DNA from: Thermus caldilimi
Lineage (GTDB): Bacteria > Deinococcota > Deinococci > Deinococcales > Thermaceae
Reading direction: 5' to 3'
Assembly (NCBI RefSeq): GCF_004684245.1
Contig: NZ_CP038452.1
Coordinates: 822,796 to 854,795, forward strand
DNA length: 32,000 nt
The translations under genes and the position numbers were made by a program. Below the pieces are notes generated by a model, which was given only the letters and a program-made list of their open reading frames with translations, did no database searches and had not been told where the DNA came from. Position 1 is the stretch's first letter. Every line of letters begins with the position of its first letter. This document shows positions 9,730-17,823 of the stretch, in pieces.

Positions 9730-9746
9730 GGGCTATCCTTACACAT
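9730..9746 (+). other. attL junction: host left-target GGGCTATC, CT core (9738..9739), phage left end TACACAT
   Basis: Defined by the guide matches in the candidate bridge RNA and by the clean trpC/hisA reconstruction (see findings). Confidence 0.6.
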
Positions 9747-9752
9747 TTAGAC

Positions 9753-11126
9753 ATGATACCTAGGGTTCTTGGCTACGGAGTGGACACCTTCCGGGTCAAC
9801 CTGTATTGGGATGAGGGACGCTATCAGTTGCCGGAAGGTCTGGAGGCCGCCCTTGATAATCTCAAGGACTTGTATCGTCAGAACCCTGGTGCGGCCATTT
9901 TGTGGGGCGTCGATGCCTATTTCCCCCTTCCTCGTTTGGATGGTTCCGTGAATATCATCTCTGGAGACCTTCCCCTTTATGAAGCGGCTTTGGTCCAGCC
10001 TACTCGTCATTACGCTTGGCAGTTGAGCTTCGCTAACCTCCTGTTCGTCCGCCTCTCGGCGGTCCGGGACACTACCCGCCGGGCTTCCTTCCCTGCGGTG
10101 GTGGTGGAGATCACGGGTACCTACATGATGCAGGCGGGTAGGGATGTCCGGCGTGTGGTGGATTGGGTCATGGAAGCCGCCACAAACCTGGTGGGTACTC
10201 GTCCGTCAAGGGTCCAGGTGTCCCGTGTTGACCTTTTCGCTGATATCGAGGTGCCCCATGGCGCCTTCCATGTGGAGGACATAGCTCGGTTCACTAGCCG
10301 GGCTCGGTCCCGGTCCATGTGGCTCGCTGAGGGGCAGGTCCCCGCCGAAGGCGGGGCCGCCCCCAGTGGGGGGCCCATGAGTAACACGCCCCCCGCTATT
10401 CAAGTTCCTGCGTCCCTCGGTGAGGCCCCTGCTACCATGTCCGTTCATCTTCGGGGTCATACCTGGTCGGGCTTCACCTTCGGGCGTGGCCCCCTGCTGG
10501 CTCGGGTCTATTCCAAGACCCTTGAGGCCAAGACCAAACCCGCTTCCCGCTTGCTCCTCAAGGCGTATGAGGAGGTTCACGGTGCCCTTCAGGGGGAGGT
10601 CGTACGGGTGGAGTTCCAGCTAACCCCGGAGGTGTTGGCCGAAATGGTGGTGCCTGGGGATGGGGTGGATGTGCGGGATTGGGACGTGTTTGGTCCGTCT
10701 ATCCCGGCGATTTGGGCGTATCTCACTGAGTCGTGGCTTGTGTTGCGTGATAAAGCCACTTACCTCAACTACTCCGTTTTGGGAAATGCCCCTGTGGATC
10801 CGCTTTGGCGGTTGGTCCAGGGTGCTTTTCGTGAGGGAGGTGATACGGGAAAGGCGGTTAGAGTGAAGTGGCAAGCACAGGTGGATGTCCTTTCGCTGGC
10901 CAAGCAGGCTCTTGGGGCCTATCTGACTGCTCTAGCGGCGGTTGGTAAGGCGGGTAAAGTCAACCTCCTCAACCCCTTCATTGCTCTTTTCCGTGTCCTT
11001 GCTGGTACTGCTGAAGATCGCAAGCGGTTCGTTGAGGAGGCTAAGGTGTCCTACTTCAAGGGTGTGGAAACAAAGCAGGCTCGCTTTGGCTACATGCCTG
11101 AGCGCATGGCATACGGAGGTGTGTGA
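9753..11126 (+). CDS. Rolling-circle replication initiator (gII analogue, Rep_trans/RstA-like)
   Basis: ATG at 9753 (MIPRVLGYGVDTFRVNLYW). It is the first gene of the phage operon. The N-terminal G(V/I)D.(F/L)R motif and FTFGRG...ARVYSKTLE resemble the (R/K)(I/V)YDK core of pfam02486-type initiators. The track start at 9588 overlaps hisA and is rejected. Confidence 0.7.
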   Translation: MIPRVLGYGVDTFRVNLYWDEGRYQLPEGLEAALDNLKDLYRQNPGAAILWGVDAYFPLPRLDGSVNIISGDLPLYEAALVQPTRHYAWQLSFANLLFVRLSAVRDTTRRASFPAVVVEITGTYMMQAGRDVRRVVDWVMEAATNLVGTRPSRVQVSRVDLFADIEVPHGAFHVEDIARFTSRARSRSMWLAEGQVPAEGGAAPSGGPMSNTPPAIQVPASLGEAPATMSVHLRGHTWSGFTFGRGPLLARVYSKTLEAKTKPASRLLLKAYEEVHGALQGEVVRVEFQLTPEVLAEMVVPGDGVDVRDWDVFGPSIPAIWAYLTESWLVLRDKATYLNYSVLGNAPVDPLWRLVQGAFREGGDTGKAVRVKWQAQVDVLSLAKQALGAYLTALAAVGKAGKVNLLNPFIALFRVLAGTAEDRKRFVEEAKVSYFKGVETKQARFGYMPERMAYGGV

Positions 11127-11458
11127 TGTTTGACGGCGTTCCGGTTAGCACGGTGGATCTCTTGGTCCTTGGTGTTTCGTCCGGTGTGCGGAAGGACGGC
11201 GTGGCCTATGCCCGTGTCCTGGTTGCCATGAGCCCCCAGATGCCTAACGTGCGGGGCCTGGAAGCGGTCTACCTGGAGGCCGATCCATCCGTGGAGGCTT
11301 CCTTCAAGACCCTCCCCGCCGTCTACCGCCTGCGCCTTCGGAAGGGTGCGGTGCGGGGTTATGGCACCCGGCGGGATGAGGTGCGGGAAGTGGTCGTGGG
11401 TGCTGAGCTCATCGGCACCCTGGCCCTCAAGGAGGCTCGGGAGGTAAAGAGTGCTTGA
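11126..11458 (+). CDS. Putative ssDNA-binding protein (gV analogue, by position)
   Basis: 110 aa. GGAGG at 11115..11119 lies 6 nt before the ATG at 11126, and that ATG overlaps the Rep TGA (TGATG). The function is assigned from gene order only. Confidence 0.55.
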   Translation: MFDGVPVSTVDLLVLGVSSGVRKDGVAYARVLVAMSPQMPNVRGLEAVYLEADPSVEASFKTLPAVYRLRLRKGAVRGYGTRRDEVREVVVGAELIGTLALKEAREVKSA

Positions 11459-11543
11459 CCTTCAGGCCCTCATGCCCTTCTTCCAGGTCGTTGCCTTTGG
11501 CCTCGGCCTCATTGGTGGGGCTCTGGTGGGGGGTGAGTGGTGA
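11451..11543 (+). CDS. Micro-ORF, 30 aa hydrophobic (gVII/gIX-like minor coat candidate)
   Basis: GTG start 6 nt after GGGAGG (11439..11444). Hand translation MLDLQALMPFFQVVAFGLGLIGGALVGGEW. Overlaps the gV-like stop. Too short for the ORF track. Confidence 0.45.
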   Translation: MLDLQALMPFFQVVAFGLGLIGGALVGGEW

Positions 11544-15922: not shown

Positions 15923-15925
15923 AAT
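15920..15925 (+). promoter_or_regulatory. -10-like hexamer TAGAAT upstream of the candidate bridge RNA
   Basis: TAGAAT lies 4-5 nt before the outer stem that starts at about 15929. No convincing -35 hexamer was seen. Confidence 0.3.
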
Positions 15926-16070
15926 GCTTGCGGGGCGGGCTGAGTGGTCGAGGGCTATCCTGGCCCTTGTGGTCGTCTGGTAGACTGGCCCCATCCCCAT
16001 AGGCGTCGTTGAGGTTGGCCCTTAGTGGTCGGGTGTAAGAGTGCCATAGGGGAGGCCCGCCCCGTATATG
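15926..16070 (+). ncRNA. Candidate IS110-type bridge RNA (two-loop guide RNA) programmed for the trpC/hisA junction and the phage ends
   Basis: Noncoding and on the same strand as, and upstream of, the IS110-family recombinase. The outer stem is CGGGGCGGGC (15931..15940) paired with GCCCGCCCCG (16055..16064). Four guide-like matches are present: GGGCTATCCT (15952..15961), CTGGTAG (15977..15983), CGTTGAGGT (16007..16015) and GTGTAAG (16033..16039). Each pair is separated by near-identical spacers. The ends are approximate. Confidence 0.6.
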
Positions 16071-16122
16071 TATGCGCTTTTTCCTGCGAGGCCTTCCACC
16101 GATAAGCCTGGTTTTATGCACG

Positions 16123-17043
16123 ATGAGCGCATTTGTAGGCGTTGACGTATCTGCAAGGTGGCTCGATGTTGCCCTTCCCTCTGGGGAAGTCCTCCGGGTG
16201 CCGAACCCTGAGGGTATCCCTTCCCTTCTCGAGGCTCTCCCTCCCGGTGCTTCCGTTGGCCTAGAGGCCACCAGTACCTACTACCGCCCTTTGGCCTACG
16301 CCCTCCACCAGGCAGGCTTCTGGGTCTACGTCCTCAACCCTCAGGCAGTCAAAGCCTATGCCCGGTCCCTCTTGCGTAGGGCCAAGACCGATAAGGCGGA
16401 TGCTAGGCTCATCGCTCGCTTTCTTGCTGAGCGGCATGTGGACTTACCCCTTTACACCCCCTTGGAGGACTCCCTTGTCCTGCTCTCCCTTCTGGTTCGC
16501 TTTTCTGAGGCCCTAACCTCTGACCGGGTGGGTGCCCTCAACCGGCTTCATGCCTGGGAGTACGTTGTGCCCGGTGTATCGGGCATCCTGGGATATGTCC
16601 CCCGTACCCTCCGGGGGCTCCGGGAGGAGGTCATGCAGAAAGCCCTTGAGGTTGCCCAGGCTGACCCTGTGGTGTCCCGGTGGCTGGACTCTCTCACCAC
16701 GCTTCCGGGTTTCGGTCACGTTCTCGCTCTGAAGGTTCTCGCCTACTCTGGCGATATGACCCGCTTCCGTTCGGCTCGGGCATATGCGGCCTTTACGGGT
16801 TTGACCCCCAGGATTTACCAGTCTGGGGACGCCCCGGAGAAGTCGGCCATCTCCAGGGTAGGCCCTTCCCGCCTCCGGTCTGCCTTTTACATGGCGGCCC
16901 TATCTGCATACCGCTTCGATGCTGAGCGTAGGGAGTGGGTGGATAGGATGGTAGCTAGAGGTAAACCAAAGAGACTTGCACTCACGGCTTTGGCGGCCCG
17001 TCTAGCACGTGCGGCGTGGGCTGTGTGCGTCAGGGGGGCTTGA
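16123..17043 (+). CDS. IS110-family DEDD/Ser recombinase (bridge recombinase), presumed phage integrase
   Basis: Start at [17 protein letters not shown]-type N-terminal domain ([28 protein letters not shown]) and Transposase_20 C-terminal domain ([16 protein letters not shown]...[13 protein letters not shown]). Codon usage is phage-like. The gene ends 17 nt before the element end. Confidence 0.9.
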
Positions 17044-17823
17044 CAAATCGCCGTTGAGGTCTACCAGCGCCCTCAGGGCTTCCTCCAGATCAGGGCTTTT
17101 CATGAGGCTGGTGCCGATGAGCACGGCGTCGAAAAGCCCCTCCAAGGGTTTCAGCTCCTCCCGGCGGGAATAGCCCGACTCCGCCACCAAAACCCCGCCA
17201 AAGCCAGCCTCTCGGGCCAAGCGGCCAAGCCTTGGGGCCGCGGTGAGGTCTATCTGCAGGGTGGTGAGATTCCGGTTGTTGATGCCCACCATCTCCGCCC
17301 CCGCCTCGAGGGCCAGCTCCAGCTCCCTTTCCGTGTGCACCTCCACCAGGGCATCCAGGCCAAGGCGCCTCGCCTCCTCCAGGTAGACCCCGGTGAGTTC
17401 CCCCAAAACGGCCACGATAAGGAGAACCGCACTGGCCCCATAGGCCCTGGCCTCCTGGAGCATGAAGGGATCCACCACGAAGTCCTTGCGCAAGAGGGGG
17501 AGGTCCACCGCTTGGCGGACCCTAAGGAGGTCCTCGAGGCTGCCTCCAAAGTAATGGGGCTCAGTGAGGACGCTGAGGGCCCTGGCCCCGCCCCGCTGGT
17601 AGGCCTGGGCAGCTGCCGCGGGATCCAGCGCCCTTATGGCCCCTTCCGAGGGGCTTGACTTCTTCACCTCAGCGATCACGGAAAGCCCTGGCTGAAGCAG
17701 GGCCTCCCGGAAGGAGGGCACCGCCTCGGGAGCAGGGGGAAGGGGATAGGGAACCACCTCTTCCGCCCGCCTGCGGGCAATCTCCCCCAGAACGCCGGGA
17801 ACCCTACTCAAGTGGGGGCGCAT
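17002..17823 (-). CDS. trpC: Indole-3-glycerol-phosphate synthase TrpC, with a phage-encoded 19-residue C-terminal extension in the lysogen
   Basis: Start at [19 protein letters not shown] (cat 17821..17823). Typical TrpC (beta/alpha)8 motifs: [20 protein letters not shown]. Native sequence ends at 17062. Codons 17059..17005 ([19 protein letters not shown]) are phage DNA. Confidence 0.9.
17040..17045 (+). promoter_or_regulatory. Outward-facing consensus -35 hexamer TTGACA at the phage right end (candidate split junction promoter)
   Basis: In the circularised element, TTGACA would sit exactly 17 nt upstream of TACACA (9740..9745), which lies 7 nt before the Rep ATG. The -10 hexamer is weak. 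Confidence 0.3.
17052..17067 (+). other. attR junction: phage right end CGTTGAGGT, CT core (17061..17062), host right-target ACCAG
   Basis: Defined by the guide matches in the candidate bridge RNA and by the clean trpC/hisA reconstruction. Confidence 0.6.

Follow-up and report, generated by a model that had tools for sequence, protein, structure and literature searches.

A Thomixvirus-type prophage of Thermus caldilimi carries an IS110-family recombinase gene and a candidate bridge RNA whose loops match both prophage junctions

Phage phiOH3 was characterised in 2016, and the same study pointed out related genes in the genomes of Thermus and Meiothermus (PMC4763002). Proviruses carrying all of the genes were later reported from several Thermus isolates, with an endonuclease gene at one end and, at the opposite end, a transposase gene of the IS110 family, and the authors suggested that integration is carried out by that transposase, as proposed for Neisseria Nf (PMC11437467, 2024). 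The Nf filamentous prophages, as they are described there, have an IS110-family (pivNM/irg-type) transposase gene at one end and are thought to integrate by it (Kawai et al. 2005, cited in PMC11437467). The bridge RNA of IS110 insertion sequences (ISs) has a target loop and a donor loop; the left target guide (LTG) and left donor guide (LDG) have the sense of the top strand left of the core, and the right target guide (RTG) and right donor guide (RDG) are complementary to the sequence right of it (PMC11208160). Here, we analysed 32,000 nucleotides (nt) of the Thermus caldilimi chromosome (contig NZ_CP038452.1, positions 822,796 to 854,795; hereafter the window), which contain a filamentous prophage between trpC and hisA. 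The most useful result is a candidate bridge RNA within the prophage whose loops, as read from the sequence, spell out both prophage junctions.

The prophage was compared with its known relatives. A blastn search returned five phage records (four distinct phages), all from Thermus, with about 71% identity over 45-49% of the query. The phages phiOH16, Zuza27, Zuza8 and phiOH3 are classed as Paulinoviridae, Thomixvirus, within the Tubulavirales, and the gene order in the window is collinear with that of the type species, Thomixvirus OH3. Protein identity to the relatives ranged from about 29% (C-terminal part of gIII) to 84% (gI and coat protein), indicating at the sequence level that the prophage is a distinct member of a known lineage and not a copy of a known phage. 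A first-pass annotation, made from the sequence alone, had called it a complete PH75-like inovirus prophage from a poorly described lineage, for which it would supply a gene map. The likeness to PH75 is supported by the coat and Zot matches given below, but the genomes of phiOH3 (2016), phiOH16, Zuza8 and Zuza27 had already been annotated with the same gene order. phiOH16, Zuza8 and Zuza27 share the order tnp, II, V, VII, IX, VIII, III, VI and Zot-type gene, and have the same IS110-family gene and bridge-RNA scaffold; the published proviruses (PMC11437467) show the same integrated layout, in which gII and the transposase gene lie at opposite ends. The window element differs from phiOH16, Zuza8 and Zuza27 in its guide loops, its integration site and its truncated, IS-bearing gIII, and its proteins are 43-84% identical to theirs. 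phiOH3 has the same structural and replication genes and the same long hairpin between gIII and gVI, but no recombinase gene; a bridge-RNA-like sequence lies at positions 31-150 of its record (L003; 53.5 bits, E 8e-11). Short remnants in phiOH3 resemble the recombinase (44% over 50 amino acids (aa)) and the zinc-ribbon open reading frame (ORF) described below, and fit the published idea that phiOH3 arose from a phiOH16-like phage by deletion.

The boundaries were determined from an empty site. By comparison with T. scotoductus DSM 8553, the prophage occupies 9740-17060 on the plus strand (7321 bp, including a 1.2-kb IS). A CT dinucleotide flanks the whole prophage (9738-9739 and 17061-17062), so the insertion consists of 9740-17060 and one extra, duplicated copy of the CT. 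In the empty site, CT stands once, and the two flanks abut in both T. scotoductus DSM 8553 (L005) and T. tenuipuniceus (L006). The T. scotoductus sequence reads ...catggggctatcCTaccagcgcc..., within the longer stretch ...catggggctatcCTaccagcgccctcag.... The limits proposed in the first-pass annotation, 9740-17062, were almost exact, and its size of about 6.1 kb without the secondary IS was borne out. The left host flank with the CT core (GGGCTATC-CT, 9730-9739, plus strand) forms the left target half in the last codons of trpC, at a distance of 4 nt upstream from the start codon of hisA on the minus strand, and the second CT core with the right host flank (CT-ACCAG, 17061-17067, plus strand) forms the right target half at the trpC 3' end; in the empty site, this right half is contiguous with 9739. 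The phage left end (9740-9752, plus strand) contains the right donor half (TACAC...), together with a -10-like box, TACACA, that stands 7 nt ahead of the gII ATG. The phage right end (17040-17060, plus strand) contains a TTGACA -35 box that overlaps the recombinase stop codon, followed by the left donor half CGTTGAGGT (17052-17060).

The last gene of the prophage (16072-17043, plus strand) encodes a 323-aa recombinase of the IS110 family (DEDD and Ser type), whose true start may be the ATG at 16123. Both Pfam domains scored above their cut-offs (PF01548, 5e-21; PF02371, 6.5e-23), as did the NCBIfam model NF033542, 'IS110 family RNA-guided transposase' (194.6 bits against 140). The PDB matches were ISCro4 (5.5e-36) and IS621 (6.6e-35), and the expected motif residues D25, E65, D107, D110 and S251 were found. 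A search of IMG/VR with the recombinase gave no match. Since phiOH16, Zuza8 and Zuza27 carry the recombinase gene in their free circular genomes as well, we regard it as belonging to the phage itself. The gene list of the first-pass annotation named no integration function, although the recombinase and the candidate bridge RNA both lie inside its coordinates.

A 279-nt spacer separates gI from the recombinase gene, and the candidate bridge RNA (132 nt, 15934-16065, plus strand) lies within it. A conserved TAnnnT box (TAGAAT, 15920-15925) is located 8 nt upstream. A covariance model built from ten relatives without the window scored the window copy at 100.8 bits (E 1.6e-22), and the next-best match in the 32-kb window reached 14 bits. 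Among 11 elements, invariant stems (UGGCC...GGUCG hairpins) surround four variable 10-nt blocks. The RNAalifold consensus has two internal loops, and the variable blocks fall in these loops between the invariant stems. Paired cells made up 94.5% of the total, compared with at most 52% in slid-partner controls; the covariation score was reached by none of 500 shuffles, and compensatory changes were found in helices 1, 4 and 5. Folded as a single sequence, the window RNA is unremarkable (z -1.6), so support for the structure comes from the comparison of relatives. No Rfam family matched, either for the whole window at gathering thresholds or for 15700-16150 at E<=10.

The four variable blocks match the four junction halves. 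In the target loop, the LTG (15952-15961) reads GGGCTATCCT, an exact 10-nt run identical to host positions 9730-9739, and the RTG (15977-15983) reads CTGGTAG, an exact 7-nt run that is the reverse complement of 17061-17067. In the donor loop, the LDG (16007-16015) reads CGTTGAGGT, an exact 9-nt run identical to phage positions 17052-17060, and the RDG (16033-16039) reads GTGTAAG, an exact 7-nt run that is the reverse complement of 9738-9744 (CTTACAC). The four guides have the strand sense and the order described for IS621 by Durrant et al.

We then compared the guides with the junctions of up to eleven elements, both prophages at different loci and free phages. For each guide, the mean exact run was longer at the element's own junction than at the junctions of the other elements. 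The values were 7.8 against 3.4 for the LTG, 7.1 against 3.4 for the RTG, 8.4 against 4.0 for the LDG and 7.0 against 4.9 for the RDG. The observed sum was reached by 1 of 20000 label permutations for the RTG and by 0 of 20000 for each of the LDG and RDG; for the LTG, it was reached by 27 of 20000, which is about the floor for six elements, set by how often a random shuffle happens to restore the true labels. The CT core was present in all seven integrated relatives with mapped junctions. Each of the integrated relatives examined sits at a different locus: the T. brockianus prophage is inside a Cys/Met-metabolism gene, a T. scotoductus prophage is upstream of rad52, and that of Calidithermus timidus is between a lapA-like gene and the hisA 3' end; others are found in T. 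caldifontis and T. albus, in a Meiothermus metagenome-assembled genome and in a hot-spring metagenome. In phiOH16, Zuza8 and Zuza27, the donor guides correspond to the short stretch that separates the recombinase stop from the start of gII, and the free circular genomes of these three phages carry the joined ends. The phage attachment site (attP) that the donor guides predict has the opposite orientation to the genes of the bridge RNA and the recombinase in Zuza27 (L002, 913-968) and Zuza8 (L004, 922-967), and is direct in the window, phiOH16 and the integrated relatives; the -35/-10 pair straddles the core in the Zuza phages too. The Calidithermus timidus/metagenome prophage (L051-L053, 4899-11153) is in the same neighbourhood as the window prophage (recJ, lapA-like gene, hisA), at the opposite hisA end. 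The target guides of this prophage match the site that it occupies, and the shared neighbourhood may be a coincidence or a regional preference.

The locus resembles the IS621/IS110 group (PMC11208160, PMC11208158) in its DEDD/Ser recombinase, its CT core and its lack of terminal inverted repeats, and also in the 5' target loop, the 3' donor loop, the strand senses of the guides and a -35/-10 pair that straddles the core. The differences from IS621 concern the arrangement. Here, the left terminus is separated by about 5.8 kb of phage genes from the RNA, which starts 6.2 kb from that terminus and has its own TAnnnT box, and the LDG is not cleanly paired with the core. The element thus departs from the canonical IS110 layout, an RNA at the left terminus driven by a promoter formed at the junction of right and left ends, and is a variant architecture and not a canonical IS.

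Promoter elements were examined at the joined ends. TTGACA is invariant at the right end, overlapping or following the recombinase stop, in 11 of 11 elements. The core lies within a 17-18-nt spacer, and a TAYAxx box follows it directly, 7-12 nt before the gII ATG, again in all eleven. In phiOH16, the junction promoter matches the consensus at 11 of 12 positions. No plus-strand promoter-like site was detected in the integrated window element. We propose with moderate confidence that TTGACA and the TAYA-type box form the promoter of gene II and the phage operon in the circular form; confidence is only moderate because the TACACA -10 box is poor. In IS110 elements, the junction promoter also straddles the core, but drives the bridge RNA; here, it would face gene II.

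The boundaries, the CT core, the RNA scaffold, the four matches and the co-variation of guides and junctions across relatives are all read directly from the sequences. From these, we assign a probability of roughly 85% to the reading that a Thomixvirus-type phage integrated at the trpC/hisA CT by its own IS110-family recombinase and a phage-encoded bridge RNA, and that an IS insertion and a deletion in gIII followed. By analogy, recombination would proceed by the IS621 mechanism (PMC11208160). The target loop would read the trpC/hisA site, with the LTG corresponding to the left flank and core and the RTG to the complement of the core and right flank. The donor loop would read attP between the recombinase stop and the gII start, with the LDG corresponding to the phage right end and the RDG to the complement of the core and phage left end. 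The predicted circular junction is ...CGTTGAGGT-CT-TACACATTT... (longer form ...GCCGTTGAGGT-CT-TACACATTTAGAC...), and the predicted restored empty site is ...GGGGCTATC-CT-ACCAGCG.... Integration would separate the -35 box of the gene II promoter from its -10 box and turn gene II off, and excision would rebuild the promoter. An IS701-like element would have entered gIII after integration, with the loss of about 230 N-terminal (receptor-side) codons.

The state of gIII was assessed in the window and in relatives. The first-pass annotation had regarded the prophage as complete; we found an IS701-like IS inside gIII and about 230 N-terminal codons missing. The N-terminal stub of gIII (11934-12103, plus strand), with a signal peptide and about 35 further residues, is collinear with L056, a contig from a public sequencing run, up to 12103. 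The secondary IS follows (12104-13309, minus strand). It has 14-bp terminal inverted repeats, CTCAAAACTTGCAC, at 12104-12117 and 13296-13309, and a DDE transposase gene at 12105-13229, whose product matches Pfam DDE_Tnp_1 (1.9e-13) and has IS701 as its best NCBIfam match, below the cut-off of that model. The terminal repeat had no other copy in the window or in 54 loci, and an exact-sequence look-up with the transposase found no other copies; the IS ends and any target duplication are thus defined from one copy. The C-terminal part of gIII (13312-14148, plus strand) has TSP3-type calcium-binding repeats (Pfam TSP3_bac, 1.7e-14) and a C-terminal membrane anchor, and it matches PHROG 36046 (E 9e-65) at profile positions 328-506 of 506. 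Residues from about 250 to 506 of the relatives' gIII align to window positions 13309-14145, and the earlier residues do not align. The sequence comparison therefore indicates that an IS-associated deletion removed roughly 230 gIII codons. The prophage is probably unable to produce infectious filaments by itself. Because the recombinase, the bridge RNA and both junctions look intact, it may still be able to excise and replicate. A TAA on both sides of the IS (12101-12103 and 13311-13313) may be accidental or may hint at the origin of the deletion.

It is also conceivable that the prophage is intact and inducible, that the short gIII is a natural variant and that the IS is harmless. All genes other than gIII are full length, and removal of 12102-13311 gives an in-frame gIII of 334 aa with signal peptide, TSP3 repeats and C-terminal anchor. 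However, this product lacks the part that varies between phages of different host range. The full-length gIII proteins of relatives measure 471-564 aa, and all nine have a conserved N-domain (RYVRWGG...LDYFYN) that is missing here. L056, which is about 95% identical to window positions 10974-12103, continues right after the breakpoint at 12103 with this conserved N-domain (...RYVRWGGAIVIGSALVYTALDYFYNY...), which occurs nowhere in the window. In the present sequence, moreover, the IS stops gIII after 67 codons. We therefore consider an intact prophage very unlikely. Damage around gIII is common and affects other prophages of the family too (L043, 6590-8218; L046, 6657-8573; L047, 6853-8576): that of T. 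brockianus has a different IS (DUF4277 and DDE_Tnp_1) beside gIII, and a long gIII ORF is lacking in two others. L048, a linear contig of an integrated prophage with short host flanks, represents the phage of L047, here with gIII intact.

Several points weigh against integration by the phage's own recombinase and bridge RNA with later damage to gIII. The support is entirely sequence-based. The elements are related to each other, so that the permutation tests overstate the independence of the donor guides; L046 and L049 share theirs. The LDG run ends one base short of the core, where a U stands opposite the core C, at best a wobble, whereas IS621 pairs the core in all four guides. The left target guide is imperfect in two relatives: in L046, a 9-nt match is offset by 2 nt from the core (about 4230-4250), and in L045, there is a 1-nt bulge (left junction at about 4515-4535). 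Canonical IS110 elements have the bridge RNA at their terminus, which is not so here, and the RNA's own promoter would consist of only the conserved TAnnnT box. The reconstituted -10 box of the window element (TACACA) is without the usual final T, which makes the promoter call weaker than for phiOH16. For gIII, the TAA flanks and the frame kept after removal of the IS also fit a simple insertion into an already short gene, against which L056 counts only as one 95%-identical relative. The imperfect left-target matches of L045 and L046 are reminiscent of the 'half-match' recombination in 2026 IS110 preprints.

A further explanation is that the IS110-family gene belongs to an unrelated IS by or in a prophage that was integrated otherwise, for example by the XerCD of the host at a dif-like site, the route of CTXphi. 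Thermus commonly carries IS110 elements, and phiOH3 is viable without a recombinase gene. On the other hand, phiOH16, Zuza8 and Zuza27 have the gene at this same place in their free circular genomes, and the donor guides match the outer ends of the prophage, 7.3 kb apart, and not the ends of an IS of about 1.3 kb. The CT core flanks the entire prophage, and there is no space for a separate IS right end, with 17 nt from the stop codon to host DNA. An unrelated IS is thus highly improbable. XerCD/dif-type integration and a tRNA attachment site were considered as candidates and rejected, since no tRNA gene was found in the window and the guide RNA explains the junctions. Equally improbable is the view that the guide-junction matches are chance or alignment artefacts and the conserved non-coding region serves the recombinase gene only as a leader or in regulation: the single matches are short (7-10 nt), the window RNA folds with a z of -1.6 and Rfam has no matching family, but all four guides match in order, strand sense and register at the core in up to eleven elements with different junctions, and the variable 10-nt blocks fall exactly in internal loops between invariant stems.

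Integration guided by the phage bridge RNA, if extended to the group, would make the Thomixvirus-type phages IS110 elements that carry a whole virus. The bridge RNA would set both attP and the host attachment site (attB), with each lineage selecting its chromosomal site through changes in two loops of about 10 nt; lysogeny and silencing would be one event, and excision would re-arm the phage. We lean slightly towards this wider view. From the target loops of the free phages, the predicted targets are CCAGTATA-CT-TTCCC for phiOH16, GGGGTAAG-CT-TTGGG for Zuza8 and TGGGTAAA-CT-CAAGG for Zuza27.

The prophage in itself adds little, as genomes and proviruses of the lineage are published and this copy is damaged, although the window is the closest public genome context that we found for a PH75-like coat protein (78% identity). 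The value of the locus is that it links filamentous phages that integrate by IS110 transposases (Neisseria Nf, Thermus Zuza, phiOH16) with bridge-RNA recombination. Nf, known here from its description, shares the idea of IS110-family integration, although its phage lineage and host are different. Cargo-bearing IS110 loci (bioRxiv 10.64898/2026.08.14.744561) likewise mobilise several kb and have guide matches to their flanks in bridge-RNA-like non-coding regions. Their cargo is mainly resistance genes and plasmid DNA, whereas the cargo here is a whole virus genome that also exists as a free phage; that preprint mentions neither 'inovirus' nor 'filamentous'. In a full-text search of an incomplete library, we found no literature that links bridge RNAs with filamentous or Thermus phages, and we make no claim of priority. 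If the proposal is true, these phages would be natural viruses whose attachment site is set by an RNA loop and not by protein-DNA recognition, and a testable rule would predict the integration site of each such phage. They would also supply pairs of bridge recombinase and RNA from organisms growing near 70 C, and the split promoter would be a very simple lysogeny switch.

The gene content was examined ORF by ORF. The order of the ORFs, their location on a single strand and their overlapping stop and start codons, as given in the first-pass annotation, agree with our ORF analysis; the strong GGAGG sites it described were found before gV, gVII, gVIII, gVI and gI, but not before gII. gII (9753-11126, plus strand) matches PHROG 33635 (E 3e-146) and is predicted, from its structural model, to be a Rep_trans-like rolling-circle replication initiator, in agreement with the earlier Rep assignment. 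Its AlphaFold2 model (pLDDT 84.9) had RepDE 4cwc_A as the top Foldseek match (E 6e-6, probability 1.0), with modest TM-scores of 0.30 and 0.46, and TBP-like folds as the next matches. Sequence searches of Pfam, NCBIfam and PDB with gII gave no match, and the Rep_trans link comes from the fold comparison. The gV-like protein (11123-11458, plus strand) matches PHROG 38435 (E 9e-16) and has the position and size of gene V of phiOH3. Its model is of low confidence (pLDDT 63.7) because the homologue search found only two close homologues. The top folds were all OB-fold SSB/PriB proteins (E 0.016-0.1), which is suggestive of a single-stranded DNA (ssDNA)-binding protein with an OB-fold, the putative function of gV.

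Three small hydrophobic ORFs follow on the plus strand. The gVII-like protein (30 aa, 11451-11543) matches PHROG 35129 (E 1e-7) with 47-75% identity to relatives, and the gIX-like protein (35 aa, 11537-11644) matches PHROG 38437 (E 1.4e-16). The third (35 aa, 11631-11738) has no PHROG match; by tblastn, each of the 11 relatives with sequence from this region has it, at 57-83% identity. The phiOH3, phiOH16, Zuza8 and Zuza27 records leave it unannotated, in the gap between genes IX and VIII. The 46-aa major coat protein gVIII (11789-11929, plus strand) starts with GTG at 11789, with a GGAGG 8 nt upstream, and has a PHROG match of its own. The two similarities on which the first-pass identification depended were both found, of gI to Zot and of the coat protein to PH75. 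The coat protein matches the PH75 coat (PDB 1HGV) with E 7.9e-20 and 35 of 45 residues identical (78%), and is closer to it than to that of phiOH3 (67%); identity to the relatives is 50-84%. The coat proteins of PH75 and the window have the same length and neither has a signal peptide. The PH75 genome is not public (PMC4763002), and the likeness to PH75 is one of the coat.

The region between gIII and gVI (14149-14413, plus strand) is a candidate packaging signal or origin. As ssDNA, it folds into one long hairpin of -81.6 kcal/mol, compared with -60.9 +/- 4.2 for shuffles (z -4.9), as the hairpin-rich intergenic region of the first-pass annotation had suggested; the counterpart in phiOH3 has a fold z of -5.7. 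The gVI-like minor coat protein (14414-14842, plus strand) matches PHROG 37052 over its full length (E 2e-47). gI (14842-15792, plus strand) encodes a Zot-type assembly ATPase (Pfam Zot PF05707, E 3e-14, 53.4 bits against a cut-off of 20.3; PHROG 20922, E 2e-154) with 68-84% identity to relatives. The lack of a pIV-type secretin gene was confirmed by a domain search, which found no secretin domain in any ORF of the element, and the phiOH3 and phiOH16 genomes have no secretin (true gene IV) either. The records of these two phages (L001, L003) label the Zot/pI-type gene 'IV: morphogenesis related protein', although its homology is to gene I of Ff.

On the host side, hisA (9018-9728) and trpC (17002-17847) are both on the minus strand, with the plus-strand ORF block between them. 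The insertion point is in the last codons of trpC, and the native hisA ATG is 4 nt beyond the trpC stop. The native C-terminus of TrpC is ...LVG*, and its last residue is now replaced by a 20-residue tail from phage DNA. hisA is split from trpC by 7.3 kb of antisense DNA (17002-17062 and 9726-9746), and its ribosome-binding site (AGGA) is retained because it is inside the left target half. The GC content of the prophage block (0.56-0.64) is slightly below that of the flanks (0.64-0.67), and the AT skew is negative over most of the plus-strand gene block.

Finally, a small zinc-ribbon ORF (15701-15922, plus strand) overlaps the 3' end of gI in the +1 frame. It encodes a hydrophobic N-terminus followed by a Cys4 zinc ribbon (CPKCGMPH...CPYDPRRG), with a Pfam Zn_Ribbon_1 match of 2e-4, below the cut-off. 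The ORF is unannotated and about 72-82 aa long, and it is conserved with its CxxC...C...CPY motif at 10 of the 12 loci inspected; L046 has it as a free-standing ORF, and phiOH3 and phiOH16 lack it. It ends in a stop codon that overlaps the TAnnnT box preceding the bridge RNA.

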